Positions 571 through 22,849 of a stretch of 64,000 bases of DNA are shown piece after piece. Origin of the DNA: Eubacteriales bacterium (GTDB taxonomy: Bacteria > Bacillota > Clostridia > Oscillospirales > CAG-272); NCBI GenBank assembly GCA_045649925.1, contig JAZRQS010000004.1:9138-73137 (forward strand), read 5' to 3'. Within the stretch, counting starts at the first letter, position 1. Every line of letters begins with the position of its first letter. Under the pieces are notes generated by a model, which did not search any database, was not told where the DNA came from, and worked only from the letters and a program-made list of their open reading frames with translations. The position numbers and the translations under genes are program-made.

Positions 571-1323
571 TTAAAGTGCGGCGTTTACTTTGTGGCCGTA
601 TTTTGTTACTGCCTCATAGGAAAGGCGTTTTGCGAGCTCGATTTCTTCAGGGCTTGCCTCAGCATCGAAATCAAAGTGCGAGAAATCAATGTTCTTTACA
701 CTTCTTGCCGTCAAGACCTGATACCATGTCAACGCTATGGCAAATTCGCCAAGACTGTTTGCGTGGAAGGTGTCCTTGTGTACTGTCAGCCCCTTCTTTA
801 TCATCGCGTGCATGGTATATCCTGCAGGGATAATACCGTGTGCACCTATTTCCTGTGATGCCTTGTCATAGCAGCCGGCTATCTCACGGAACATATCGTC
901 TCCGTGCTCAAAGCCTACCTTCCCGAGCTTTTCAGAGCCATCCTCGTATTCCCACGTCTGATGTATAAGTATTTTTGCCTTGGGGCAAAGCTCTCTTATA
1001 GCATCTGCGAGTACGGATATGTAGGGCTGATATGTGGCGTAGGAGAAGGATCTCGGACTTGCCTGCTGGAGAGTTACATAATCCCAGTCCATAGCAAGAA
1101 GCGCCTCTTTAATGGATATTTTATGACCTGACTGTATTCCGTTCACGCCAAGCACGTAGGCTTCATCGTCGGTATGGTAGTTGCGAAAATGCCTTGCAAG
1201 GTCGCATCCACCGATATAGAGATTCCATGCCAGAATAGGCTGCTTGTCGTCTCTGCGAGCAATTCTGTGAATGTAGTTGTGGGCATTGACGGAAAAACTA
1301 TTTCCAATAGAAAGAATATTCAT
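571..1323 (-). CDS. DUF4886-like SGNH/GDSL-type hydrolase (uncharacterised)
   Basis: 250-aa ORF. It has an N-terminal GNSFS block (SGNH block I-like) and overall resembles DUF4886 proteins. It is 12 nt downstream of its paralog. Confidence 0.6.
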   Translation of the reverse strand: MNILSIGNSFSVNAHNYIHRIARRDDKQPILAWNLYIGGCDLARHFRNYHTDDEAYVLGVNGIQSGHKISIKEALLAMDWDYVTLQQASPRSFSYATYQPYISVLADAIRELCPKAKILIHQTWEYEDGSEKLGKVGFEHGDDMFREIAGCYDKASQEIGAHGIIPAGYTMHAMIKKGLTVHKDTFHANSLGEFAIALTWYQVLTARSVKNIDFSHFDFDAEASPEEIELAKRLSYEAVTKYGHKVNAAL

Positions 1324-5850: not shown

Positions 5851-7248
5851 TTATCTTCGCAAAAGGAATTTGACTGTCTTGAATAGCGCAGAGAAGTTCA
5901 GCACGCATATCGCCACGACAAGTATCGCTTGAGTGAGAAGCGTGTGGGGCGCATCGGAAAGTATAAAAGCGCATTGCAATACGAGAATGAGCGTGTTCAA
6001 TACAAGGGTGGGTATATTCATATTGAATTTGATATATCTCCTTGTCTGGAACGCTCGTATTATGAATACTACAAAGTAGCTCGCAAAAGTGGCGATAGCC
6101 GCTCCGTTTGCGCCAAGCTCTGTAGGAATAAGCAAAAGATTGAGTATGATGTTGAGTGCGGCACCGACAAATGCTGTATAAAATGACATCATGCTCTTTT
6201 TTTCCATAAGGTATATAACGCCCATAAACGTGACAAGCGAGGAATATACAGTCGCAAGCGCAAGTATGGGGATATATCTCCACGAGGTGTAGTATGACTG
6301 GTCAGCCATTATTCTCGTGGCTATCTTTGAAAAGGCGATGAGAAATGCGCCTGTCACAAACATAAGTGACTGGAAGTTGGTAAACGTGACAGAGAAGAAT
6401 TGCGAGTGCTCCTTGTCTCCTGCCGACCTTTCCTTGACGGCAGAAAACTGCCATGCCTCTATGAATATTCCCGACACGAGAGTAAGCATGGTGGGTATCT
6501 TGTACGATACTGTATAAAGACCTGTCACAGAAGCGTCTATCATTTCCATAAGCATATATCTGTCAGCGACATTCGTTATCCACCACAGGATAGTGGTAGG
6601 TATAAGAGGTATGCTATACGCCAGCATGCGCTTGAGCGTTGCCACCTTTATAGCTGACACGTCGAGCTCGCGCCAGAGTCTTGCCCACACGAAAATGATT
6701 ATAGCGCAGACAAAATCGGAAATTACGATAGACAGCACGTATCCCGTTATTCCCATATCGAACACGAGTAAGAAAAGCAGATTGAGCGATATGATTATGA
6801 GTGTGCCTATTATTCCTTTCAGCGCAAAGAGTTTCATCATTCCCTTGGAGCGTACGTATTGGGCACACACCGAGTTAAGACAGGAGGAGATAACGTACAG
6901 CACGATAAGAAGTCCGTACCCTTGTACCATATCTATCATATTGATAAATGGCGTCAGAAGTGCAAAAATCACACCGTTTGCGATTATCAGGGCAAGACCT
7001 GATGAGAATACGCCCTTGCTGTTTTTCTCGTCGTCCATAGCGAGACGGAAAATAGCCTCAAAAAGTCCGAGCGAGAGCACGGGAATGAGTAGATTTGCCG
7101 TCTGGGTTATAATGTCAGCGACACCATATTCCTCAGTAGAAAGGCATGCGGTGTAAAAGCGCACGAGGAAAAACACGAGTAGCTTCGAGCTGAACGTTCC
7201 TATACCGAGTATAGTGGTGTTTGAAATAAGCCGTTTGTATTTGTCCAT
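5851..7248 (-). CDS. MOP-superfamily oligosaccharide/polysaccharide flippase (Wzx-like)
   Basis: 465 aa, polytopic membrane protein. The N-terminus NTTILGIGTFSSKLLVFFLVRFYT is typical of polysaccharide biosynthesis/flippase proteins. Confidence 0.8.
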   Translation of the reverse strand: MDKYKRLISNTTILGIGTFSSKLLVFFLVRFYTACLSTEEYGVADIITQTANLLIPVLSLGLFEAIFRLAMDDEKNSKGVFSSGLALIIANGVIFALLTPFINMIDMVQGYGLLIVLYVISSCLNSVCAQYVRSKGMMKLFALKGIIGTLIIISLNLLFLLVFDMGITGYVLSIVISDFVCAIIIFVWARLWRELDVSAIKVATLKRMLAYSIPLIPTTILWWITNVADRYMLMEMIDASVTGLYTVSYKIPTMLTLVSGIFIEAWQFSAVKERSAGDKEHSQFFSVTFTNFQSLMFVTGAFLIAFSKIATRIMADQSYYTSWRYIPILALATVYSSLVTFMGVIYLMEKKSMMSFYTAFVGAALNIILNLLLIPTELGANGAAIATFASYFVVFIIRAFQTRRYIKFNMNIPTLVLNTLILVLQCAFILSDAPHTLLTQAILVVAICVLNFSALFKTVKFLLRR

Positions 7249-11717: not shown

Positions 11718-11779
11718 TTTCATTTCACGCTTGTGCTTTCTGCTCATGTAAACGGTGTGCGGAAAAAGTGCTATACATA

Positions 11780-11808
11780 TTGACTTTTTTCCCTGTTTAT
11801 GTTACAAT
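11780..11808 (+). promoter_or_regulatory. sigma-A-type promoter of glyA
   Basis: TTGACT (11780-11785), 17 nt, TACAAT (11803-11808). It lies inside the over-extended track ORF 11755-13083. Confidence 0.5.
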
Positions 11809-11844
11809 AGATTTGTTATAAATACAACTTTTGAGAGGTATGCT

Positions 11845-13083
11845 ATGAACTTTTTTGATGAATTGGCAAATTATGATTCAGAGGTGTTTGAGGCGTGCGA
11901 TCTTGAGCTGAAAAGACAGCAGCACAACATCGAGCTTATAGCTTCTGAAAATATCGTTTCTCGTGCAGTGCTTTTGGCAGCGGGAACAGTTCTTACAAAC
12001 AAATACGCCGAGGGTTACCCCGGCAAGAGATATTACGGTGGATGCCAGTGCGTTGACATCGTAGAGAATATTGCACGCGAGAGAGCAAAGAAGCTCTTTG
12101 GCGCAGAGCATGCGAATGTTCAGCCTCATAGTGGCGCATCTGCAAATCTTGCAGTATTCTTTGCACTCCTTAACCCCGGTGATACAGTAATGGGCCTTAA
12201 TCTTGCACATGGTGGACACCTTTCCCATGGCTCTCCTGTAAATATATCAGGTAAGTATTTCAATATTGTGCCTTACTGCGTTTCCGACGATACGGAAACT
12301 CTTGACTACGAGTCCATCAGAGCTACAGCGCTTGAGTGCAAGCCCAAGATGATCATTGCAGGCGCAAGTGCTTATTCAAGAACTATTGATTTTGCAAAGA
12401 TAAGAGAGATAGCTGATGAGGTTGGCGCATATTTCATGGTTGATATGGCTCATATAGCAGGTCTTGTAGCTGCAGGACTTCACCCCAATCCCGTACCCCA
12501 TGCGCATGTAGTTACTACCACTACACACAAGACGCTTCGCGGTCCTCGTGGTGGACTTATCCTTTGTCGTGAGGAGTTCGCAAAGCAGATAGACAAGGCA
12601 GTTTTCCCAGGCACACAGGGTGGCCCTCTTATGCACATAATCGCCGCAAAGGCAGTGGCTCTCGGCGAGGCTCTTACCGATGAGTTCAAGGAATATCAGG
12701 CGCAGATAGTTAAGAATGCAAGCGTTCTTTGCGAGGCGCTCAAGAGCGAGGGCTTCAGAGTGGTTTCTGACGGAACTGACAACCACCTTATGCTCATCGA
12801 CCTTCGCCCCTTTGGTATAACGGGTAAGGAGTTTGAGCATCGTCTTGACGAGGTTCATATTACAGTAAACAAGAACGCTATTCCCAACGACCCTGAAAGT
12901 CCCTTCGTTACAAGTGGTATCCGTGTAGGTACACCTGCTGTAACAAGCAGAGGCTTCAAGGAAGAGGAGATGCTCAAGATAGCAAAGTGGATGGGCGCTA
13001 TCGCTTCTGATTTTGAGGCAAACAAGGATAAGGTAACTCGCGAGGTTATGGAGCTTTGCGAGAAGTTCCCCATCTATTCCTAA
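11845..13083 (+). CDS. glyA: serine hydroxymethyltransferase
   Basis: Start moved to the ATG at 11845 ([11 protein letters not shown]...). Motifs: [24 protein letters not shown], and [14 protein letters not shown] containing the PLP lysine. Confidence 0.95.
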
Positions 13084-13101
13084 TAAGTATTGATTTTTAC
13101 G

Positions 13102-13137
13102 AAATACGGCTGTCCTTTTTGGAGGATAGCCGTATTT
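13102..13137 (+). terminator. putative terminator after glyA
   Basis: AAATACGGCT (13102-13111) pairs with AGCCGTATTT (13128-13137). The U-tract is weak. Confidence 0.5.
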
Positions 13138-13182
13138 ATTCATAATATAATTATATTTAAGGAAACTTTTTTCTTTTGGCTA

Positions 13183-13211
13183 TTGACTTTTTTTGTCGTC
13201 TGTGCTATACT
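13183..13211 (+). promoter_or_regulatory. sigma-A-type promoter of the T-box operon
   Basis: TTGACT (13183-13188), a 17-nt spacer ending in TGc (extended -10), then TATACT (13206-13211). Confidence 0.6.
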
Positions 13212-13244
13212 TTGTATAGTTTTTATCAGTTGAAAACATTTAAA

Positions 13245-13499
13245 CACGATGACCAGAAACAAGTAGCGCTATTTTAAGCCTGCAGAGAGCTGTCGGACGG
13301 TGCAAGACAGAGGTGGAGAATAGATGTGAATACATTTTGCGAGTGGCGTGCCGAATTTTGAGTAGGACACGACGGGAGTGCCCGATATAGCACCAGGGTA
13401 TATATGTACCCGATGAGGTCCATACTGCGAGGCATGGATGAACTGAGGTGGTAACACGAGATCTCTCGTCCTCTGAATTAAGTTTCAGGGGCTTTTTTT
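13245..13499 (+). promoter_or_regulatory. T-box riboswitch leader, specifier UAC (Tyr), with intrinsic terminator
   Basis: Hand-folded elements:
- GA/K-turn: CAC-GAUGA (13245-52) opposite CGA-GUG (13340-45).
- AGUA (13262-65).
- AG bay AGAGAG (13284-89).
- Distal helix CUGUC/GACAG.
- Specifier loop GAA-UAC-A (13328-34).
- T-box bulge UGGUAAC (13449-55) between antiterminator helices GAGG/CCUC and ACGAG/CUCGU.
- Terminator CCUCUGAA/UUCAGGGG (13470-91) followed by U7. Confidence 0.85.
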
Positions 13500-13527
13500 A
13501 TTGCCCCAAAAGGAAGGATTTTAAATT

Positions 13528-15165
13528 ATGCCAATTACCGAAATTTTGCAAAAGAATGCGGATTTTTACCCCAACGACATAAGTCTTGTGGAAATAAATC
13601 CTCAGCTTGAAAATCATCAGAGATTGACTTGGAGAGAGTATTCCTTGATAGAGTCAAATCCCAATGAGGCATATCGTAAGGAGCTCACTTGGGGGGATTT
13701 CAACAAGCAGGCAAACAGATTTGCAAATCTGCTTTTGACACGAGGAATTAAAAAGGGTGACAAGGTAGCCATTTTGCTTATGAACTGCATTGACTGGCTT
13801 CCTATATACTTTGGTATCTTGAAGACGGGAGCTATGGCAGTACCCCTCAACTACCGTTATACATCAGATGAGATCAAGTATTGTCTTGATCTTTCCGACT
13901 CGGATTTCATTATCTTTGGCCCTGAATTTACAGGACGTATAGAGCAGATATTCTCACGTGTAAAGCGTATAAAGACGTGGCTCTATCTCGGAGATGACTG
14001 TCCGACCTTTGCAGAAAGCTATGAGAGCTTGATCTCATACTGCTCCTCAAAGAGCCCCAAGATAAAATTGACAGACGACGATGATGCGGCTATATATTTC
14101 TCGTCGGGAACTACAGGCTTCCCCAAGGCGATAATACATAAGCACAGGAGTCTTGTTCACGCCGCTATGACGGAGCAGACCCACCACTCACAGACAAAGG
14201 ACGATAACTTCCTCTGCATTCCTCCTCTCTATCATACAGGAGCAAAAATGCACTGGTTTGGTAGCTTCCTTGTCGGTGGAAAGGCGGTTATCCTCAAGGG
14301 TATAAAGCCCGAGTGGATACTTGAAACTGCCGCAAGAGAGCAGTGTAGCATAGTATGGCTGCTCGTTCCGTGGGCGCAGGATATACTCGACTCTCTCGAC
14401 AGAGGAGATCTCAAACTCTCCGACTATGACCTTTCAAAGTGGAGATTGATGCATATAGGCGCACAGCCTGTACCTCCGAGCCTTATAAAGCGCTGGAAAA
14501 AGTATTTCCCCCATCATCAGTATGACACAAACTACGGACTTTCCGAGTCTATAGGCCCTGGCTGTGTGCATCTTGGCGTCGAGAACATACACAAGGTAGG
14601 CGCTATAGGTAAGGCAGGCTTTGGCTGGCAGACAAAGATAATAGACGAAAACGGAAATATAGTCGAGCGTGGCGAGGTCGGTGAGCTCGCAGTAAAGGGA
14701 CCTGGCGTTATGACCGCTTACTACAAGGACGAGCGCGCTACTGCCGAGGTTTTACATGACGGATGGCTTCACACAGGTGATATGGCGCAGGAAGACGCAG
14801 ACGGATTTATCTTCCTTGTTGACAGAAAGAAGGATGTTATCATTTCTGGTGGTGAAAACCTTTATCCTGTACAGATAGAGGACTTTATCCGCAAAAACGA
14901 TAAGGTCAGCGATGTAGCCGTTATCGGCTTGCCCGATGCAAGACTTGGCGAGATAGCCGCGGCTATCGTTCAGGTAAAGGATGGAATGACCTTGACACAG
15001 GAGGAGCTTGACGACTTCTTCCTTGAATTGCCGAGATATAAGAGACCGAGAAAGGTCATCTTTGCAGACGTGCCGAGAAACCCCACAGGAAAGATAGAAA
15101 AGCCCAAGCTTCGCCAGATTTATTGTGGCGAGAGCGTTGTCGCACAGCAAAACGAAATTAAGTAA
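13528..15165 (+). CDS. ANL-superfamily acyl-CoA synthetase (AMP-forming), substrate unknown
   Basis: 545 aa. AMP-binding motifs YFSSGTTGFPKA, YGLSE, the GWLHTGD hinge, and C-terminal PRNPTGKIEK. AAGGAAGGA SD upstream. Confidence 0.85.
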   Translation: MPITEILQKNADFYPNDISLVEINPQLENHQRLTWREYSLIESNPNEAYRKELTWGDFNKQANRFANLLLTRGIKKGDKVAILLMNCIDWLPIYFGILKTGAMAVPLNYRYTSDEIKYCLDLSDSDFIIFGPEFTGRIEQIFSRVKRIKTWLYLGDDCPTFAESYESLISYCSSKSPKIKLTDDDDAAIYFSSGTTGFPKAIIHKHRSLVHAAMTEQTHHSQTKDDNFLCIPPLYHTGAKMHWFGSFLVGGKAVILKGIKPEWILETAAREQCSIVWLLVPWAQDILDSLDRGDLKLSDYDLSKWRLMHIGAQPVPPSLIKRWKKYFPHHQYDTNYGLSESIGPGCVHLGVENIHKVGAIGKAGFGWQTKIIDENGNIVERGEVGELAVKGPGVMTAYYKDERATAEVLHDGWLHTGDMAQEDADGFIFLVDRKKDVIISGGENLYPVQIEDFIRKNDKVSDVAVIGLPDARLGEIAAAIVQVKDGMTLTQEELDDFFLELPRYKRPRKVIFADVPRNPTGKIEKPKLRQIYCGESVVAQQNEIK

Positions 15166-15185
15166 TCCTTGAAAGGAATTCAAAT

Positions 15186-16928
15186 ATGAAAAAACTCATG
15201 CTTGGAAATGAGGCAGTTGCCAGAGGAGCATACGAGGCAGGCGTTAATGTAGTCGCCTCTTACCCTGGAACACCCTCTACAGAAATTACCGAAAATATTG
15301 TTAAGTACGATGAGATATATGCTGAATGGTCGCCTAATGAGAAGGTGGCGGCAGAGGTCGCTATAGGTGCGTCTATCGGTGGCGCGAGAAGTATGTCCTG
15401 CATGAAGCACGTAGGTCTTAACGTAATGGCAGACCCCATATTTACAGTAAGCTATACAGGCGTAAACGGCGGACTTGTTTTCTGCGTTGCAGATGACCCC
15501 GGAATGCACTCGTCCCAGAACGAGCAGGATTCCCGTCACTATGCAGAGGCATCTAAGATAACGATGCTTGAGCCCTCGGATTCCGAGGAGTGCAAGGAAT
15601 ACACTCGCATGGCGTTTGACATAAGCGAGCGCTTTGACACGCCTGTATTCATTCGCTTGTCTACAAGAGTATCTCACTCACAGAGCTTGGTAGAGCTTGG
15701 CGAAAGAGCAAATATAGAGCTTAAGCCCTACGAGAAAAACGTGCAGAAGTACGTTATGATGCCTGCTATGGCAGTCAAGAGACACGTAGTGGTAGAGGAC
15801 AGAATGAAGGCGCTCGAGGAGTTTGCAAACACATCTGACCTCAACGTTGAGGAGATCAACGACGGATGTGAAATAGGTGTTATCACATCGGGAATTTCCT
15901 ATATGTATGCAAAAGAAGCTCTTGGAAACGAGGTAAGCTACCTCAAGCTCGGAATGGTATATCCGCTCCCCTCGGAGAAGATAAAGGCATTTGCCGCAAA
16001 GATGAAGAGGGTAGTTGTAATCGAGGAGCTTGATCCTTTTATAGAAAATGCATGTCGTGCAATGGGACTTGCAGTAGAGGGCAAGAGCCACTTCACTCTG
16101 CTCGGCGAATACACTCCCGCTATGATAAAAAAAGCAGTTTTGGACGAGGATGCTCCCGAGTTTGACGCTCCCAAGGAAGACATTCCGGTACGTCCTCCTG
16201 TAATGTGCGCGGGCTGTCCTCACAGAGCGACATTCTATGTGCTCAAGAAGCTCGGACTTGTAGTTTCGGGCGATATCGGATGCTACACGCTCGGCGCTGT
16301 CGCTCCTCTTGCGAGTGTTGACACCACCATATGCATGGGCGCTTCTGTAAGTGCGGCACATGGTATGGCAAAGGCGCGTGGCGCAGAGTTCAACAAGAAG
16401 CTCGTTTCCGTTATAGGCGACTCCACGTTTATACATTCAGGTATCACAGGTCTTATCGACATCGTGTATAACAAGGGCGCAAACACAGTAATTATCCTTG
16501 ATAACTCTATCACAGGTATGACAGGCCATCAGGAAAACCCCACAACAGGCTATACTATCAGAGGTGAAGAAACTCGTGCAGTAGACCTTTTGGCTCTTTG
16601 TCGAGCAGTCGGTATAGACAACGTAGTTGTTGCAGATCCCTTCGACCTTGACAACTTCGAGAAGATAGTGAAAGAGGAAACAAACAGAGCAGAGCCCTCC
16701 GTCATTATCGCACAGCGTCCCTGCGCACTTCTCAAGCGAGTTAAGTACACAGGCCATTGCTCGATCGACAGTGAAAAGTGCAAGAAGTGTAAGAAGTGCA
16801 TGAAGCTCGGATGCCCTGCAATTTCAGTAATTGACGGCGCTGTAAAGATAGATTTGACACAGTGCAACGGATGCGGACTTTGTATAAACGTATGCCCGTT
16901 CGATGCTATAGAAAAGAAGGAGGACTGA
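15186..16928 (+). CDS. iorA: indolepyruvate:ferredoxin oxidoreductase alpha subunit
   Basis: 580 aa. The start MLGNEAVARGAYEAGV...ASYPGTPSTEI is typical of IorA. It has a TPP-binding region (GDSTFIHSG) and two C-terminal ferredoxin motifs (CKKCKKCMKLGCPA, CNGCGLCINVCP). Confidence 0.9.
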   Translation: MKKLMLGNEAVARGAYEAGVNVVASYPGTPSTEITENIVKYDEIYAEWSPNEKVAAEVAIGASIGGARSMSCMKHVGLNVMADPIFTVSYTGVNGGLVFCVADDPGMHSSQNEQDSRHYAEASKITMLEPSDSEECKEYTRMAFDISERFDTPVFIRLSTRVSHSQSLVELGERANIELKPYEKNVQKYVMMPAMAVKRHVVVEDRMKALEEFANTSDLNVEEINDGCEIGVITSGISYMYAKEALGNEVSYLKLGMVYPLPSEKIKAFAAKMKRVVVIEELDPFIENACRAMGLAVEGKSHFTLLGEYTPAMIKKAVLDEDAPEFDAPKEDIPVRPPVMCAGCPHRATFYVLKKLGLVVSGDIGCYTLGAVAPLASVDTTICMGASVSAAHGMAKARGAEFNKKLVSVIGDSTFIHSGITGLIDIVYNKGANTVIILDNSITGMTGHQENPTTGYTIRGEETRAVDLLALCRAVGIDNVVVADPFDLDNFEKIVKEETNRAEPSVIIAQRPCALLKRVKYTGHCSIDSEKCKKCKKCMKLGCPAISVIDGAVKIDLTQCNGCGLCINVCPFDAIEKKED

Positions 16929-16931
16929 CAA

Positions 16932-17498
16932 ATGAACAAGAACGTAATGATAGTCGGCGTAGGCGGTCAGGGAACACTCCTTGCATCGAGAATACTCGGA
17001 AATGCTGTAATCAGTCAGGGACACGATGTAAAGGTCTCTGAGGTTCACGGAATGAGCCAGAGAGGTGGAAGCGTTGTTACATACGTAAAATACGGTGACA
17101 AGGTATATTCACCTATTATTGATAAGGGTGAGGCTGACATTATTCTCGCGTTTGAGTTGCTTGAGGCTTACAGAGCGCTCCCTTACTTGAAAAAGGGTGG
17201 AATAATGATCATCAACGACAGAGAAATTTCTCCTATGCCTGTAATTACAGGAGCGATGAAATATCCCGAAAAAATTAAAGAGAAAATAGCAGAAAAGGCA
17301 AACATCGTTACCCTTGACGCTCTTGAGATTGCAATAAAGGCAGGAAATTTCAAGGCAGTAAACGTAGTTTTAATCGGTGTAATGGCAAAGAATACGGACA
17401 TTCCTTACGATGTGTGGGTAGAAACAATAAAGAGCACAGTGCCCTCGAAGTTCTTGGATGTAAACCTTGCCGCATTTGATATGGGTTATAATTATTAA
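16932..17498 (+). CDS. iorB: indolepyruvate:ferredoxin oxidoreductase beta subunit
   Basis: 188 aa. The start VMIVGVGGQGTLLASRILG and SEVHGMSQRGGSV are typical of IorB (gamma-type 2-oxoacid oxidoreductase domain). It starts 3 nt after iorA. Confidence 0.9.
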   Translation: MNKNVMIVGVGGQGTLLASRILGNAVISQGHDVKVSEVHGMSQRGGSVVTYVKYGDKVYSPIIDKGEADIILAFELLEAYRALPYLKKGGIMIINDREISPMPVITGAMKYPEKIKEKIAEKANIVTLDALEIAIKAGNFKAVNVVLIGVMAKNTDIPYDVWVETIKSTVPSKFLDVNLAAFDMGYNY

Positions 17499-17530
17499 GC
17501 TTAACATTTGATTTTTAAGAGGTAACTAAA

Positions 17531-18829
17531 ATGATACACCAGAAGGATATAGAATGCATGCCTCGCGAGGAGCTTAAAAAGCTCCAGAGCGAACGCCTTG
17601 TATGGCAGGTAAAGAGAATGTACGAAAGAGTAGAGCTCTTCCGTACGAGAATGGATGAAATAGGTCTTAAGCCTGAGGATATTCACGGCATAGAGGACCT
17701 CCACCGTCTCCCTTTCTCCTACAAACAGGATCTGCGCGATTATTATCCCTACGGACTCTTTGCAGAGAGCATGGATAAGATAGTGCGAGTTCACGCTTCG
17801 TCCGGAACTACAGGAAAGCAGATAGTAGTAGGTTATACACGAAAGGACCTTGAAAGCTGGGCAAACTGCTTTGCAAGAGCGCTCAAGGCTACAGGCGCTG
17901 ATGAAAACTCTTTCGTTCAGGTTTCCTACGGCTATGGTCTATTTACAGGTGGTCTTGGCGCGCATGAGGGCTCACAGCTCATTGGCGCTACAGTAATTCC
18001 TACTTCCGCAGGAAATACCCCCAGACAGATACAGACAATGATAGATTTCGGCGCTACCGTGCTTTGCTGTACTCCTTCATATGCGCTCTTCCTCGCTGAA
18101 ACCATTGAGGAAATGGGCGTAAAGGATCAGCTCAAACTCAAGGCGGGAATTTTCGGTGCTGAGCCTTGGACAGAGGAGATGCGCCACACCATCGAAGAAA
18201 AGCTTGGTATCAAGGCATATGATATTTACGGCCTTTCCGAGATAATGGGACCTGGAGTATCATACGAGTGCGAATGCCAGTGCGGAATGCACGTGTGCGA
18301 GGACTTGTTTATCCCTGAAATAATAGATCCCGACACCCTTGAGGTTCTCCCTGAGGGAAGCTCGGGCGAGCTTGTATTCACCACACTAACAAAGGAAGGC
18401 TTCCCACTCATCAGATACAGAACAAGAGATATCTGCTCGCTCAATTACGAGACCTGTAAGTGTGGCAGGACCTTCGTCAGAATGAACAAGCCATCTGGCA
18501 GAAGCGACGACATGCTTATTATCCGTGGCGTAAATGTGTTCCCCTCACAGATCGAGGAGGTTATCATAAAGTCGAGTGGCGTTACTCCTAACTATCAGAT
18601 TATCGTAGACAGAGTAAACAATACAGACACATTCGACCTCAATGTAGAAATGAACGAGGAGCTCTTCTCAGACGACGTTAAGTCCGTTATCGCAGTAGAG
18701 AAGAACATTACAGAGCAGCTTCGCTCCACTCTCGGTATAGGCGTCAAGGTGCACCTTGTAAACCCCAAATCTATTGCGAGAAGCGAAGGCAAGGCAAAGC
18801 GCGTAATAGATAACAGAAAGCTTAGATAA
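17531..18829 (+). CDS. paaK: phenylacetate-CoA ligase family protein (PaaK-type)
   Basis: 432 aa with the PaaK-like motifs SSGTTGK, YGLSE and IRYRTRD, and the C-terminal VFPSQIEEV. Confidence 0.85.
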   Translation: MIHQKDIECMPREELKKLQSERLVWQVKRMYERVELFRTRMDEIGLKPEDIHGIEDLHRLPFSYKQDLRDYYPYGLFAESMDKIVRVHASSGTTGKQIVVGYTRKDLESWANCFARALKATGADENSFVQVSYGYGLFTGGLGAHEGSQLIGATVIPTSAGNTPRQIQTMIDFGATVLCCTPSYALFLAETIEEMGVKDQLKLKAGIFGAEPWTEEMRHTIEEKLGIKAYDIYGLSEIMGPGVSYECECQCGMHVCEDLFIPEIIDPDTLEVLPEGSSGELVFTTLTKEGFPLIRYRTRDICSLNYETCKCGRTFVRMNKPSGRSDDMLIIRGVNVFPSQIEEVIIKSSGVTPNYQIIVDRVNNTDTFDLNVEMNEELFSDDVKSVIAVEKNITEQLRSTLGIGVKVHLVNPKSIARSEGKAKRVIDNRKLR

Positions 18830-18841
18830 GGAGAATTGAAT

Positions 18842-19273
18842 ATGGCTATAACACAATTATCCGTTTTTGTAGAGAATAAAGCCGGCAGACTCGCCACAAT
18901 AGTAGACCTTCTCGGAAAAAACAACATAAATATGAGAGCGCTTTCAATAGCAGATACCGCAGACTTCGGTATCCTTCGCATCATTGTTGACGATTCTCAG
19001 CGCGCCATCTCCTTGCTCTCCGATGCAGGGATTATGGTAAAGCGTACAAAGGTTATCGCAGTTGCTATCGACGATGTTCCCGGCGGGCTTTCAAAGATAC
19101 TTACCACACTTAGCAATAACGGAGTAGTGATAGAGTATATGTACGCCTTTGTAGGAAAGACTCACACAAAGGCTATCACAGTTATCAGAACTGATGATAT
19201 AAACAAGACGCTTGACGTGCTTGAAAAGAACGATATTCATGCAATAGGCGATGAGGAAATACAGGACATCTGA
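18842..19273 (+). CDS. ACT-domain protein (small-molecule-binding regulatory domain)
   Basis: I chose the ATG at 18842 (AAGGAGA SD 7 nt upstream) rather than the TTG at 18836. It has two ACT-like repeats (QLSVFVENKAGRLATIVDLL ... AVAIDDVPGGLSKILTTL). Confidence 0.8.
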   Translation: MAITQLSVFVENKAGRLATIVDLLGKNNINMRALSIADTADFGILRIIVDDSQRAISLLSDAGIMVKRTKVIAVAIDDVPGGLSKILTTLSNNGVVIEYMYAFVGKTHTKAITVIRTDDINKTLDVLEKNDIHAIGDEEIQDI

Positions 19274-19292
19274 TTTCCGTTCGCAACAAAAA

Positions 19293-19323
19293 CCGCTATG
19301 GTGATTTCACCATAGCGGTTTTT
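19293..19323 (+). terminator. rho-independent terminator ending the T-box operon
   Basis: 12-bp perfect stem CCGCTATGGTGA / TCACCATAGCGG followed by T5. Confidence 0.85.
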
Positions 19324-19357
19324 ATATGTGTAACTTAATAATATAACTATCTAAAGC

Positions 19358-19393
19358 AAAAACAGCTCTGCCGAAAGGCAAAGCTGTTTTTTT
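19358..19393. terminator. terminator hairpin after the ispH-S1 gene (A-run / T-run on both sides)
   Basis: CAGCTCTGCC-GAAA-GGCAAAGCTG (one C.A mismatch), flanked by A5 and T7. Confidence 0.7.
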
Positions 19394-19403
19394 GTAGCTT
19401 AAA

Positions 19404-21479
19404 TTAGTCGATAACCTTTACAATGTAGGGAGCCATCTCTGCCTCGAGCTGTGCCTTTTCCTCAGCCTCAGCCTTTGCAGCAGCGATTCTCTCTGCCTTT
19501 TCAGCCTCTCTGCGAGCCATCTCTTCGATCTTCTTTGTGTCCTCGATGAGTGCCTTCATGGAAAGGCTGAGCTTACGATGCTCGTCGTCGATCTCGGTGA
19601 TCTTAACATCAACCTCCTGACCGATTGTAAGAACTTCCTTGGGATCCTCTATTCTGTCGTGAGAAATCTTGGAGATGTGGATAAGACCGTCAACACCATC
19701 AGCAACCTCAGCAAATGCTCCGAAGGGCATAAGGTTTACTATCTTAGCCTTTGTAACGTCGCCTTCCTTGAAGTTCTTTGTGAACTGGTACCAGGAATCC
19801 ATCTCCTGTGTCTTGTATCCGAGAGAAATGCGCTTCTTTTCTACGTCAAGCTCCTTGACATATACATCGATCTGCTGACCGATTGTAAGAACCTGTGAAG
19901 GATGCTTGATACGCTTCCAGGAAAGCTCTGTGTTGTGAACCATGCCGTCGATACCGCCGATGTCCACAAATGCGCCGTAGGGTGCAAAATTCTTAACTGT
20001 ACCCATATAGTGCTTACCTTCCTCGATGCCTGCCCAAGCAGCAGCCTCAGCTGCCTTGCGCTGCTCGTTGAGGATAACCTTTATAGAAGCAACTGCATGC
20101 TTGCGGTGCTCGTCGATGTCGATAATTCTTACGCTCTGTGTTGTGCCTACGAGTGTAGAAATATCAGCATCTCTGGAAAGACCTGTCTGGGAAGCGGGAA
20201 TGAATATCTCATTACCCTTGATAGAGATCAAAAGACCTCCCTTGAGTGCCTTTGTGATTGTTCCTTCAAGTGTAGCGCCCTCCTTGTAGAGATTGCGGAT
20301 TTCTACCCAGCTGTTGTCAGCGTCTACTCTCTTCTTAGAGAGAGTAGCAGTACCCTTACCATCCTCTACTCTGATTACGAAAGCGGTGATTTCGCTTCCC
20401 ACTGCAAACATTTTACGCAGGTCGGCAGAGTTATCATCGGTGATCTGCTCACGGGGGATTATTCCCGTAACTTTTGTACCAAGGTCTACGTAGACTTCAT
20501 TGTCAGCAATAGCCGTAATGATACCGTGCACTGTTTCTCCTGTATGTAAAGTTTTGAGTGATTGTTCCAGCATTTGTTCAAAATTTTCGCCAGTCATGTT
20601 TTTATAAACCTCCATTATTATACCGTTCGGAGTTGAAGCTCCGGCGGTTATTGCAACTTTAGAATTTGTGAGGAGCAGGTCGGGAGGCAGCTCGTCTGCC
20701 GTCTCTATCCATACCGTGCTCGGACATAGCTTTTTACACAGCTCATACAGCTTTGCTGTATTTGAGCTCGTCTTTCCACCCACGACGACTATCGCATCGG
20801 AGCTTTCAGCAAGCTCAAGGGCTTCGGTCTGCCTGTCCTCAGTCACACTACATATTGTATCAAAAAATTTTGCATTTGTATATAGTTTTTCGATATTTTT
20901 TTGACTTTTTTTCCACAGTTTTAGATTTTGTGTGGTCTGAGCAGCAAAAACTAACTGTTTTTTGTCAAAAACGCCTTGTTTTTGAAGCTCTTCAAATTCT
21001 TCTTCAGACGAGAAGATGTATTTTTCTCCCTTTACGTAACTCAAAATGCCTTGAACCTCGGGATGATTTTCCGTACCGAGAAGAACGAAGCGCGTGCTTT
21101 CATCTGTATTTTCGTCAGCAATTTTGTGAATGCGCTTTACGAAGGGGCAGGTGAGGTCGCTGACACTAAAGCCCTCGTATTCCTCCTCCAGCTCTCGTAG
21201 CTTGCGCTCTACGTCGGCAGGAATTCCGTGTGTCCTGATTACGAGGTGTACTTTCTTGCCATTCTCGCTTTTTCTTGCAAGAGCCTCTGCCTCTTCAAAG
21301 GTGACACTGTGTACGCCACGCTTTTCAAGGGAAGTGACGTAGACGTCGTTGTGTATCAGCTTTCCTAAGGTGTATATTTCGGTATCACCGTCATTTGTGG
21401 AAATAAGGCTCTCGACAAAATCTGTCGCGCGCTTTACACCAAAGCAAAATCCGGCATGCTTTGCAATTGTGATGCTCAT
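19404..21479 (-). CDS. ispH: bifunctional 4-hydroxy-3-methylbut-2-enyl diphosphate reductase (IspH) / ribosomal protein S1 (four S1 repeats)
   Basis: 691 aa. The N-terminal roughly 285 aa is IspH/LytB (AKHAGFCFGVKRA, CPFV, TICSVT). The C-terminus carries four S1 OB-fold repeats (GxV.....GAFVD.G..G..H.S). Confidence 0.9.
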   Translation of the reverse strand: MSITIAKHAGFCFGVKRATDFVESLISTNDGDTEIYTLGKLIHNDVYVTSLEKRGVHSVTFEEAEALARKSENGKKVHLVIRTHGIPADVERKLRELEEEYEGFSVSDLTCPFVKRIHKIADENTDESTRFVLLGTENHPEVQGILSYVKGEKYIFSSEEEFEELQKQGVFDKKQLVFAAQTTQNLKLWKKSQKNIEKLYTNAKFFDTICSVTEDRQTEALELAESSDAIVVVGGKTSSNTAKLYELCKKLCPSTVWIETADELPPDLLLTNSKVAITAGASTPNGIIMEVYKNMTGENFEQMLEQSLKTLHTGETVHGIITAIADNEVYVDLGTKVTGIIPREQITDDNSADLRKMFAVGSEITAFVIRVEDGKGTATLSKKRVDADNSWVEIRNLYKEGATLEGTITKALKGGLLISIKGNEIFIPASQTGLSRDADISTLVGTTQSVRIIDIDEHRKHAVASIKVILNEQRKAAEAAAWAGIEEGKHYMGTVKNFAPYGAFVDIGGIDGMVHNTELSWKRIKHPSQVLTIGQQIDVYVKELDVEKKRISLGYKTQEMDSWYQFTKNFKEGDVTKAKIVNLMPFGAFAEVADGVDGLIHISKISHDRIEDPKEVLTIGQEVDVKITEIDDEHRKLSLSMKALIEDTKKIEEMARREAEKAERIAAAKAEAEEKAQLEAEMAPYIVKVID

Positions 21480-22849
21480 TGTTCCTCATTTGTGGCTATG
21501 CTTGGGGAAAAATCGCCCAGCCTGCATATCTCGGAAAAAATTCTTTCCGTCGCCGCCTTGTATTCCTTGCTTCCGCCTGATGAAAATCCTAATTCGCTGT
21601 ATTCGATGGGCTTTCCTATGATTACGTCAACTCGGCGAAAAAGAGAGTATTTCTGTTTTTTTGTTTTGATGCATACGGGAATTACCGTAGCTTTTGAGTG
21701 GTACGCTATCATACCTGCTCCATTTTTGACCTCGGTATCAGCAGGGTTTTTGCCCTTGCATCTCGTGCCCTGCGGGAATATAGCTATCGCCTCACCGTTT
21801 TTTACGAGCGAGATAGCCTTTTTCATGGCGCCGACATCTCCACCCTTGCGCTCGAGCTTACATCCACCGAGAGCGATAATAGCAGAGCGCAAAATCGGTA
21901 TTTTGAAAAGCTCTGCCTTTGCGAGATAGCGCAGACGCCTGCTTTTAGGCAGACATGCGGAGATGGAAAAAACGTCCCAAAGCGAAACGTGGTTTGCGCA
22001 TACTATACATCCGCCTTCAAGAGGGAAGTTGTCCTGTCCCTGTGGCTTGAGCTGGAGGATAAAACGGAAGAATTTCGCAAAGAGGGTATGGAAAACACGA
22101 TAAAATCTCGATTGCTCTATCTTGCTTTCGGATGTTTTTTCACCGCTGTCAGCGTTTTTTTTTACTTGGTCGTCAGGAGAGTTTTTTTTTAAGCCGTTTT
22201 CGATAATTCTGATAGCCTCTGCGACAGTTTCCTCTGCAGAAAGCTCGGAGTTGTCGAGGACTGTGGCGTCGGGAGCGGCGATGGCGGGAGCGACTGCTCT
22301 CGTGCTATCGTTTGTGTCTCTCTGTATCATATCTGCGAGCACCTCCTCGTAGGTGGTGGAAATGCCCTTTGCGATAAGCTCAGCATATCTGCGCTTTGCT
22401 CTCGCCTCATTTGATGCAGTGAGGAATATCTTGACGTCTGCATCGGGGAATATAACTGTGCCGATGTCACGTCCGTCCATTATAATATCGTTTGTGTTGG
22501 CGATAGAGCGCTGCATATCCAAAAGGAATGCTCGCACCTCAGGAATAGCAGAAACCTTTGACGCATACATAGAGATCTCCGGAGTACGTATTTTGTCGCC
22601 TACGTCCTCGCCACAGAGAAATACGTGCTGCTCGCCGTCAATAAAGCGCATATCCGCAACGACGGAGGGAAGTGCTGCAACAACGGCGGCACTATCGTCG
22701 GGGGAAATGCCGTTTTTCTGCATATAAAGTCCGACTGTGCGATAAAGCGCGCCTGTGTCGACATATACTATGTTCATTTTGTGAGCTACGGCGCGTGCAA
22801 GACTGCTTTTTCCTGCTCCGCTAGGTCCGTCAACTGCAATTTTTATCAT
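21476..22849 (-). CDS. cmk: fusion of cytidylate kinase (Cmk) and 1-acyl-sn-glycerol-3-phosphate acyltransferase (PlsC-like)
   Basis: A single 457-aa ORF. The N-terminus is Cmk (MIKIAVDGPSGAGKSS, DGRDIGT). The C-terminus is an LPLAT (HX4D as NHVSLWD, FPQGTR). Its stop overlaps the ispH start (ATGA). Confidence 0.85.
   Translation of the reverse strand: MIKIAVDGPSGAGKSSLARAVAHKMNIVYVDTGALYRTVGLYMQKNGISPDDSAAVVAALPSVVADMRFIDGEQHVFLCGEDVGDKIRTPEISMYASKVSAIPEVRAFLLDMQRSIANTNDIIMDGRDIGTVIFPDADVKIFLTASNEARAKRRYAELIAKGISTTYEEVLADMIQRDTNDSTRAVAPAIAAPDATVLDNSELSAEETVAEAIRIIENGLKKNSPDDQVKKNADSGEKTSESKIEQSRFYRVFHTLFAKFFRFILQLKPQGQDNFPLEGGCIVCANHVSLWDVFSISACLPKSRRLRYLAKAELFKIPILRSAIIALGGCKLERKGGDVGAMKKAISLVKNGEAIAIFPQGTRCKGKNPADTEVKNGAGMIAYHSKATVIPVCIKTKKQKYSLFRRVDVIIGKPIEYSELGFSSGGSKEYKAATERIFSEICRLGDFSPSIATNEEQ
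22155..22190 (-). repeat. two A9 homopolymer tracts (coding strand), 18 nt apart, in the Cmk-PlsC linker
   Basis: Plus strand has T9 at 22155-22163 and T9 at 22182-22190. The coding strand reads tta-aaa-aaa-aac and gta-aaa-aaa-aac (LKKN / VKKN). Confidence 0.9.

Follow-up and report, generated by a model that had tools for sequence, protein, structure and literature searches.

Why should a T-box riboswitch precede genes for coenzyme A (CoA) ligases and an indolepyruvate oxidoreductase? The question is raised by a 64,000-nt stretch of contig JAZRQS010000004.1, from the genome of a Eubacteriales bacterium of the CAG-272 lineage (GCA_045649925.1), which is referred to here as the window. In it, a leader RNA carrying the tyrosine triplet UAC was located, by reading the sequence directly, in the intergenic region between glyA (11755-13083; PF00464) and the open reading frame starting at 13528, the first of the operon lig545-iorA-iorB-paaK-ACT. 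We regard it as probable that this leader is a canonical transcription-attenuating T-box responding to tRNA-Tyr, the operon behind it most likely supplying the cell with tyrosine from an exogenous arylacetate.

A complete T-box leader with a tyrosine specifier

The whole window was scanned with the Rfam covariance models, and two matches reached the gathering score: one tRNA and the T-box family RF00230. The latter (103.5 bits, against a gathering score of 93; E 9.5e-22) was a full-length match on the plus strand covering model positions 1-219, and the element is a complete class-I T-box, with a K-turn Stem I, a specifier loop, an AG bay, a distal loop, Stem II, a Stem IIA/B pseudoknot, Stem III and an antiterminator/terminator switch (coordinates in Table 1). 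In the pseudoknot, the loop GUGC (13378-81) of a hairpin at 13374-83 pairs with GCAC (13390-93). The T-box sequence proper, GAGGUGGUAACACGAG (13445-60), contains the UGGN bulge, and the antiterminator is built from the helices GAGG/CCUC (13445-48 / 13470-73) and ACGAG/CUCGU (13456-60 / 13465-69). Since CCUC 13470-73 is common to antiterminator and terminator, the two folds are mutually exclusive. The unconstrained minimum free energy (MFE) fold contained the terminator together with Stem I, the latter with a 7x7 specifier loop (ACAAGUA / GAAUACA), and the promoter was found about 30 nt upstream of the T-box start. A first-pass annotation of the same letters had folded these elements by hand and had proposed the RF00230 scan; its coordinates agreed with the sequence, its promoter was recovered by a consensus scan, and its terminator, with the same 8-pair stem, was found independently. 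The part that had to be changed was the helix flanking the specifier loop, for which the helix below the loop is better drawn as in Table 1.

Relatives of the locus were collected by scanning species-representative genomes with the IorA protein of the window, which yielded 80 loci from metagenome-assembled genomes (MAGs) of gut and rumen Clostridia labelled Congzhengia, Monoglobales, Christensenellaceae, Acutalibacteraceae, Oscillospiraceae and Ruminococcus. T-boxes in these loci were searched for by iterative nhmmer seeded with the window leader, and the operon layout was mapped by tblastn. A T-box on the operon strand was detected upstream of the operon in 16 of the 80 loci, in addition to one remnant. 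Four further distinct loci joining a T-box to lig545 came from a metagenome scan (L081, L082-85, L087 and L096), and another, L161, with a T-box of 108.8 bits, was retrieved not by IorA but through the lig545 homolog P0118 (81% identical, present in 61 sample blocks). The first-pass annotation had suggested looking for T-boxes upstream of ior/paaK genes in related genomes, and they were thus found before the same operon in 21 other distinct loci (16 genome loci, four metagenome loci and L161), all from gut and rumen Clostridia. Seven of the related T-boxes were confirmed by Rfam at the gathering score, with 100-128 bits.

Covariation was evaluated on 16 aligned leaders, by counting 33 pairs on the canonical T-box structure. 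This structure was 97.5% paired, as against 40-49% when the 3' partners were slid by 1-3 columns; compensatory changes were observed in 20 of the 33 pairs, and none of 500 shuffles reached the observed covariation score. The distal helix (100% paired, 2/5 pairs compensatory), the Stem IIA/B pseudoknot helix (100%, 3/4) and Stem III (96.6%, 5/6) were all well maintained, as were the two antiterminator helices (100% and 95% paired), the inner one of which covaries. The GAGGUGGUA motif of the T-box bulge region was invariant, and so were AGAGAG and the G-UG core of the distal loop, with GGUG present in 15 of the 16 leaders. An RNAalifold consensus of the same leaders proposed a long-range AGAG/CUCU helix, which was judged spurious, the pairs being counted on the canonical structure instead.

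The covariance alignment placed GAA-UAC-A on the GAA-NNN-purine columns of the model, so that UAC is the specifier; this is the triplet that the first-pass annotation had read by analogy, and no other triplet was put at that position. The posterior at the specifier columns was moderate (PP about 5), and the register was therefore tested by comparison with the related leaders. UAC was in register in 15 of the 16 aligned leaders and occurred in the window and 20 other distinct loci, the remaining locus, L039, having UUC (Phe). The helix that begins one base past the codon was 100% paired, with 4/5 pairs compensatory, which fixes the register. The agreement goes far beyond chance: the window leader is a class-I T-box that specifies tyrosine, is under structural constraint and looks functional.

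Some specifier loops departed from the usual form. In L034, L039, L041 and L052 (labelled Christensenellaceae) and in L081 and L082 (metagenome contigs without a label), the specifier was followed by C, G or U where a conserved purine A is usual, and an extra U or A stood between GAA and the codon.

Operon content and its linkage to the T-box

The genes lig545-iorA-iorB-paaK-ACT follow one another at distances of 3-32 nt, and the gene after them is encoded on the other strand, so that these five genes constitute the cargo of the T-box. The operon had been annotated at first pass as one for a CoA ligase and an indolepyruvate oxidoreductase, with which the domain and NCBIfam matches agree. Its first gene has a ribosome-binding site, AAGGAAGGA, at 13510-18; the nearest solved structures to its product were FadD13 (250 bits), followed by FadD5 and the feruloyl- and 4-coumarate-CoA ligases, and a homolog search returned generic names only. 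Both subunits of the indolepyruvate:ferredoxin oxidoreductase (IOR) scored above their NCBIfam equivalog cutoffs, and IorA contains the domains POR_N, TPP_enzyme_C and Fer4. The second ligase is, by sequence, PaaK-like and close to solved PaaK structures. According to the tblastn map the five-gene order is widely conserved among the relatives, and the ACT-domain-pair protein is kept at the same position in most related loci.

Three architectures were distinguished. In the first, a Na+:solute symporter (SSF; PF00474) is inserted, giving T-box-SSF-lig545-iorAB-paaK-ACT (L003, L005, L008, L013, L014, L021, L024, L031 and L047); the symporter thus lies between T-box and ligase in nine genome loci and also in L161, where the order is SNF transporter, T-box, SSF, lig545, iorA, iorB, paaK, ACT. 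In the second, the T-box directly precedes lig545, as in the window (L010, L034, L041, L045 and L052). In the third it directly precedes iorA, without lig545 (L039). In a further locus, L062, the symporter stands between the T-box and a PaaK paralog. The specifier was UAC wherever lig545 or the symporter followed the T-box.

The third architecture was found in a Christensenellaceae locus, where a T-box of 105.3 bits (L039, 2741-2966) lies directly upstream of iorA-iorB-paaK-ACT. It is the only T-box operon lacking both lig545 and the symporter, and it has UUC in the register in which its closest relatives (L034, L041, L052 and L081) have UAC, so that a one-base switch of specifier coincides with the absence of the 545-aa ligase.

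Table 1. Features of the leader and operon in the window (position 1 is its first letter), followed by two features of related loci, numbered within each locus.
Feature	Position	Strand	Basis or detail
Sigma-70-type promoter, TTGACT-17-TATACT, extended -10 TG	13183..13211	+	Consensus scan; 10/12 matches, top site within 12900-19600
T-box leader RNA, RF00230	13240..13476	+	Full-length covariance match
Stem I	13245..13345	+	Base CAC/GUG, 13245-47 / 13343-45
Stem I K-turn GA motif, GAUGA	13248-52, opposite 13340-42	+	Sequence, covariance alignment
Helix below specifier loop	13254-58 / 13335-39	+	Sequence, covariance alignment, MFE fold
AGUA of specifier-loop S-turn (AGUA...GAA)	13262-65	+	Sequence
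AG bay, AGAGAG	13284-89	+	Sequence, covariance alignment
Distal helix, CUGUC/GACAG	13290-94 / 13306-10	+	Sequence
Distal loop, GGACGGUGCAA	13295-13305	+	Sequence, covariance alignment
Specifier loop 3' side, GAA-UAC-A	13328..13334	+	Specifier UAC 13331-13333, then purine A13334
Stem II (13347-13371) and Stem IIA/B pseudoknot	13347..13393	+	Covariance alignment
Stem III	13418..13439	+	Covariance alignment, MFE fold
Antiterminator with T-box bulge UGGUAAC (13449-55)	13445..13473	+	Sequence, covariance alignment
Intrinsic terminator, stem 13470-77 / 13484-91, then C + U7	13470..13499	+	8 pairs, 4 G-C, loop of 6, T-run
lig545, class-I AMP-forming acyl/aryl-CoA ligase, 545 aa	13528..15165	+	PF00501, PF13193
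IorA, indolepyruvate (arylpyruvate):ferredoxin oxidoreductase, alpha subunit	15186..16928	+	TIGR03336, 751 bits (cutoff 650.9)
IorB, beta subunit	16932..17498	+	NF005325, 285.5 bits (cutoff 230); PF01558
PaaK-like arylacetate-CoA ligase, AMP-forming	17531..18829	+	PDB 2Y27 (phenylacetate-CoA ligase), 448 bits
ACT-domain-pair protein, last gene of operon	18836..19273	+	PF19571 (ACT_8), 112.5 bits
Non-T-box conserved leader	L007 ~6310-6412; L012 ~2290-2410; L023 ~6560-6770; L026 ~6540-6656; L028 ~6620-6811; L033 ~6960-7048; L050 ~6580-6675; L089 ~2390-2494; L109 ~880-982		
Membrane protein, ~225 aa	L041 5774-6448; also L027, L029, L035, L040, L052, L081-L085		

Direction of the pathway and competing explanations

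The tRNA response, as expected by analogy with the T-box family, would begin with transcription from the predicted promoter. Uncharged tRNA-Tyr(GUA) would pair through its anticodon with UAC 13331-33, its elbow would stack on the platform formed by the AG bay and the distal loop, and its free NCCA end would pair with UGGU 13449-52. UGGU is expected to pair with a tRNA 3' end ACCA, that is, with discriminator A73, and A73 is the discriminator of bacterial tRNA-Tyr. The antiterminator (13445-73), stabilised in this way, would allow read-through into lig545-iorA-iorB-paaK-ACT, and with charged tRNA-Tyr the terminator (13470-91 and U7) would form. T-boxes turn genes on when the cognate tRNA is uncharged and, to our knowledge, every known T-box target acts to increase the amount of the cognate aminoacyl-tRNA available; an operon that is on at tyrosine starvation should therefore make or import tyrosine.

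From this logic and the gene content we infer the direction of the pathway and its substrates. An exogenous arylacetate, proposed to be 4-hydroxyphenylacetate, would be imported, the importer in many relatives being the co-transcribed Na+:solute symporter; the AMP-forming ligases would activate the arylacetate to arylacetyl-CoA; IOR, with reduced ferredoxin and CO2, would carboxylate it reductively to 4-hydroxyphenylpyruvate; and an aminotransferase encoded elsewhere would convert the latter to tyrosine, with the ACT protein as a candidate amino-acid sensor. Both operon ligases are AMP-forming, which was counted for an anabolic operon, and since a co-transcribed symporter fits the uptake of a precursor and an ACT pair fits the sensing of an amino acid, both were counted for the salvage route.

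The same genes could serve the opposite purpose, the T-box being real and the operon catabolic, with an IOR-based oxidative fermentation of aromatic amino acids to arylacetates and a T-box that is accidental or follows a non-standard logic. IOR is reversible, and its first characterisation was in archaea that ferment peptides. It has been linked, in Bacteroides thetaiotaomicron, to the conversion of phenylalanine to phenylacetate (cited in PMC13285125). Against this, a breakdown of tyrosine induced by uncharged tRNA-Tyr would be self-defeating, an importer-type symporter is co-transcribed in relatives, and both ligases belong to the AMP-forming class, which favours thioester synthesis; energy-conserving catabolic routes use a phosphotransacylase and a kinase, or ADP-forming synthetases (PMC13285125). 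The linkage, furthermore, has been kept in more than 20 loci from several families, and its specifiers are aromatic only (UAC and UUC), which argues against an accident. We therefore consider a catabolic operon unlikely, and supply of tyrosine the better explanation.

Besides the reversibility of IOR and its link to phenylacetate formation in Bacteroides thetaiotaomicron, several observations weigh against tyrosine supply. A tRNA-Tyr in which the GUA anticodon and A73 could be verified was found neither in the window, where the sole tRNA is tRNA-Arg(CCG), nor in 60 related loci; the operon contains no aminotransferase gene; lig545 scored below the cutoff of every NCBIfam model; and the PaaK-like ligase reached 546.8 bits with TIGR02155, under the equivalog cutoff of 646.3. 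An intact T-box was present on 14 of the 33 evaluable lig545 operons among the genome representatives, so that T-box control is lineage-specific; a divergent T-box was not found at the Rfam gathering score in seven of the loci whose operon has none. Finally, the link between a Phe specifier and the absence of lig545 comes from a single locus, L039.

It is very improbable that the T-box answers another tRNA because its specifier was misregistered, for instance AUA (Ile), ACA (Thr) or a triplet for tRNA-Phe. The moderate posterior leaves some room for this, as does the covariance model moving the register by one in L045, and UGGU would suit any tRNA with A73. However, UAC held despite differing flanks (GAA-UAC-A, AAA-UAC-A and GAAU-UAC-C/G/U) and was the sole overlapping triplet conserved across the leaders, the helix one base after it is fully paired with compensatory changes, and the single variant, UUC, is one base off and likewise specifies an aromatic amino acid. 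The alternative registers AAU, AUA, ACA and CAU were discarded, since only UAC survives the flank changes between lineages.

It is equally improbable that the leader is the non-functional remnant of a decaying T-box, with an operon in effect constitutive or otherwise controlled. T-box loss does happen in this operon family (L006 retains the 3' half only, with a mutated bulge), a T-box is missing from more than half of the related operons, and the window bulge is UGGUAAC instead of the consensus UGGUACC. Against this, the match extends over the whole model and exceeds the curated threshold, antiterminator and terminator are both intact and exclude each other, the conserved motifs are all kept, the AAC bulge recurs in L014 and L087, and compensatory substitutions show selection on the structure.

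Within the explanation by tyrosine supply, a more specific proposal can be put forward, although tentatively, as we would not give it even chances. The T-box may mark a dedicated bacterial pathway in which 4-hydroxyphenylacetate, released by other gut microbes, is turned into tyrosine. SSF would be the importer, lig545 a ligase specific for 4-hydroxyphenylacetate, IorAB the reductive carboxylase and the ACT protein a sensor for feedback, and the specifier would track the product (UAC with lig545, UUC with PaaK alone). Because UAC goes with lig545, and the sole operon with a Phe specifier has no lig545, the comparison of loci points to lig545 as the ligase of the tyrosine branch, with 4-hydroxyphenylacetate as its substrate. 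If this proposal is true, the 4-hydroxyphenylacetate pathway is one that had not been assigned genetically before, and the carrier lineages may be tyrosine auxotrophs, without prephenate dehydrogenase, that live by cross-feeding.

Variant loci, implications and known systems

Two leaders of related operons were incomplete. In a Halothermotrichaceae MAG (L062, 6716-6884) a T-box precedes SSF, the PaaK paralog, iorAB and ACT, with a score of 87.1 bits (E 6.6e-20) that falls short of the gathering score of 93; about 40 model positions of distal Stem I are deleted, so that there is neither AG bay nor distal loop, and GAA-U-UAC-A and the terminator are kept. A transcriptional T-box without the platform for the tRNA elbow is unusual. 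In L006 (7935-8087), a good promoter is followed by no more than Stem III and the antiterminator/terminator part; there is no Stem I, and mutation has turned the bulge into GGCGGUAUC, with the terminator hairpin and its U-run intact before lig545. By its sequence this leader looks like a decayed T-box.

Nine loci without a T-box, whose ior operon begins with the SSF symporter, share a different conserved leader (Table 1). Its 5' box, GTAGTAT-N5-8-A(T/C)GG(T/C)AG, comes directly after the -10 box; its 3' box, (G)TA(G/A)TATGGAAGGA(T/C)GG(T/C)A(G/A), whose end lies 3-6 nt upstream of the ATG, shares bases with the ribosome-binding site. The pattern GGAAGGA[CT]GG[CT]A[AG] occurred at only nine places in 160 loci plus the window, and some of the spacers between the boxes hold a hairpin and a U-run. 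The leader had no match in Rfam, even at E<=1. This leader may regulate the operon in another way, perhaps through a bound protein.

Operons without the SSF symporter were seen to carry, between iorB and paaK, a conserved membrane protein of about 225 aa that belongs to an uncharacterised family (Table 1); its only Pfam similarity is a weak, sub-threshold one to Mpv17/PMP22, and it may be an alternative uptake component. In L161, which represents a widespread human-gut lineage, a gene of the Na+:neurotransmitter-symporter family (PF00209; 2726-4081) lies immediately upstream of T-box(Tyr)-SSF-lig545-ior, and no second T-box was found before it at the gathering score.

Other matches of the nhmmer profile stood before different genes. 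A T-box-like leader in L049 (20067-20334, minus strand; nhmmer E 1e-27) precedes a 766-aa protein whose C-terminal part is about 24% identical to lig545 and whose N-terminus, by eye, resembles a helix-turn-helix and cupin region. The T-boxes of L076 (16579-16856) and L067 (621-927) target leuA, with the specifier CUC (Leu) by eye, and that of L042 (5162-5380, minus strand) targets alaS, divergent from lig545. With leuA and alaS among its matches, the profile is not specific to the ior operon.

The other annotated genes of the window are housekeeping genes (dxs, tsaB, plsY, a QueG-like protein, glyA, gltX, a histidine kinase and a Y-family polymerase), and none of the annotated window genes is for aromatic amino acid biosynthesis or an aminotransferase. 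Directly downstream of the operon, on the minus strand, LytB/IspH is fused to four S1 domains (19404-21479, 691 aa), and next to it a cytidylate kinase is fused to an acyltransferase domain (21476-22849, minus strand, 457 aa).

For clusters of IorAB and an AMP-forming arylacetate-CoA ligase in gut bacteria, both directions have been argued: a biosynthetic one from enzymology (PMC13285125, below), and, in studies that connect IOR with phenylacetate formation, the opposite one. Phenylacetate has itself been associated with host cardiovascular disease. A riboswitch of fixed logic, with expression at uncharged tRNA-Tyr, is a separate line of evidence, from regulation, that the direction is anabolic across a broad range of Clostridia from gut and rumen. 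Concrete roles that can be tested follow for lig545, the SSF symporter and the ACT protein, all three so far unannotated. The synthesis of aromatic amino acids from arylacetates by rumen bacteria, long observed, would gain a genetic basis, and T-box specifiers prove usable for annotating salvage pathways, beyond synthetases and transporters.

The first-pass annotation had doubted that this gene set was a textbook T-box target, and within the literature searched the doubt held. In a full-text search of about 8 million papers, with subscription-only literature and regulon databases outside its scope, so that an earlier annotation may exist, no paper linked a T-box to indolepyruvate, ferredoxin oxidoreductase or phenylacetate-CoA ligase; a T-box and iorA/paaK appeared together in PMC2700814 only, where the two are treated separately. 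The Wels 2008 T-box survey and its accessible supplements make no mention of ior/paaK-type genes. The RNA is an ordinary T-box, with the founding specifier of its family, UAC, and it is the target operon that is unusual.

The closest known RNA is the leader of Bacillus subtilis tyrS, the founding T-box, which has the same architecture, a UAC specifier followed by A, and the same expected logic of read-through with uncharged tRNA-Tyr. The window leader differs from it in its bulge (UGGUAAC instead of UGGUACC) and in its targets: acyl-CoA ligases, IOR and an ACT protein take the place of an aminoacyl-tRNA synthetase, a gene of the shikimate pathway or a classical transporter of amino acids.

For the enzymes, the nearest precedents are in Methanococcus maripaludis, where aryl acids are substrates of an IOR-dependent second pathway to aromatic amino acids (PMC4162585, citing Porat et al.), and in rumen cultures, which make phenylalanine from phenylacetate by reductive carboxylation (cited in PMC7356843). 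As in that route, an arylacetate-activating ligase and a reductive IorAB are proposed here to lead to arylpyruvates and, by transamination, to amino acids. In contrast to it, the hosts are gut and rumen Clostridia, the operon is headed by a riboswitch that would sense tRNA-Tyr, and it has the additional ligase lig545 and, in relatives, SSF.

Bacteroidota are not known to us to use T-boxes. In the iorAB and arylacetate-CoA ligase cluster of Bacteroides (PMC13285125), IorAB likewise adjoins an AMP-forming PaaK-type ligase and the same question of anabolism or catabolism arises; that 2026 paper treats the direction of bacterial IOR and ligase clusters as open and argues from the enzymology that it is possibly biosynthetic. 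Unlike this cluster, the Clostridia operon has a T-box as regulatory evidence on direction. The Geobacter iorAB-paaK operon, which appears as 'tryptophan (iorAB-paaK)' among the biosynthetic operons in Table 2 of PMC2700814, resembles it in being an amino-acid biosynthetic operon with a conserved 5' regulatory sequence. The Geobacter element, however, is not a T-box, the T-box there being on leuA, and its operon was assigned to tryptophan, not to tyrosine.

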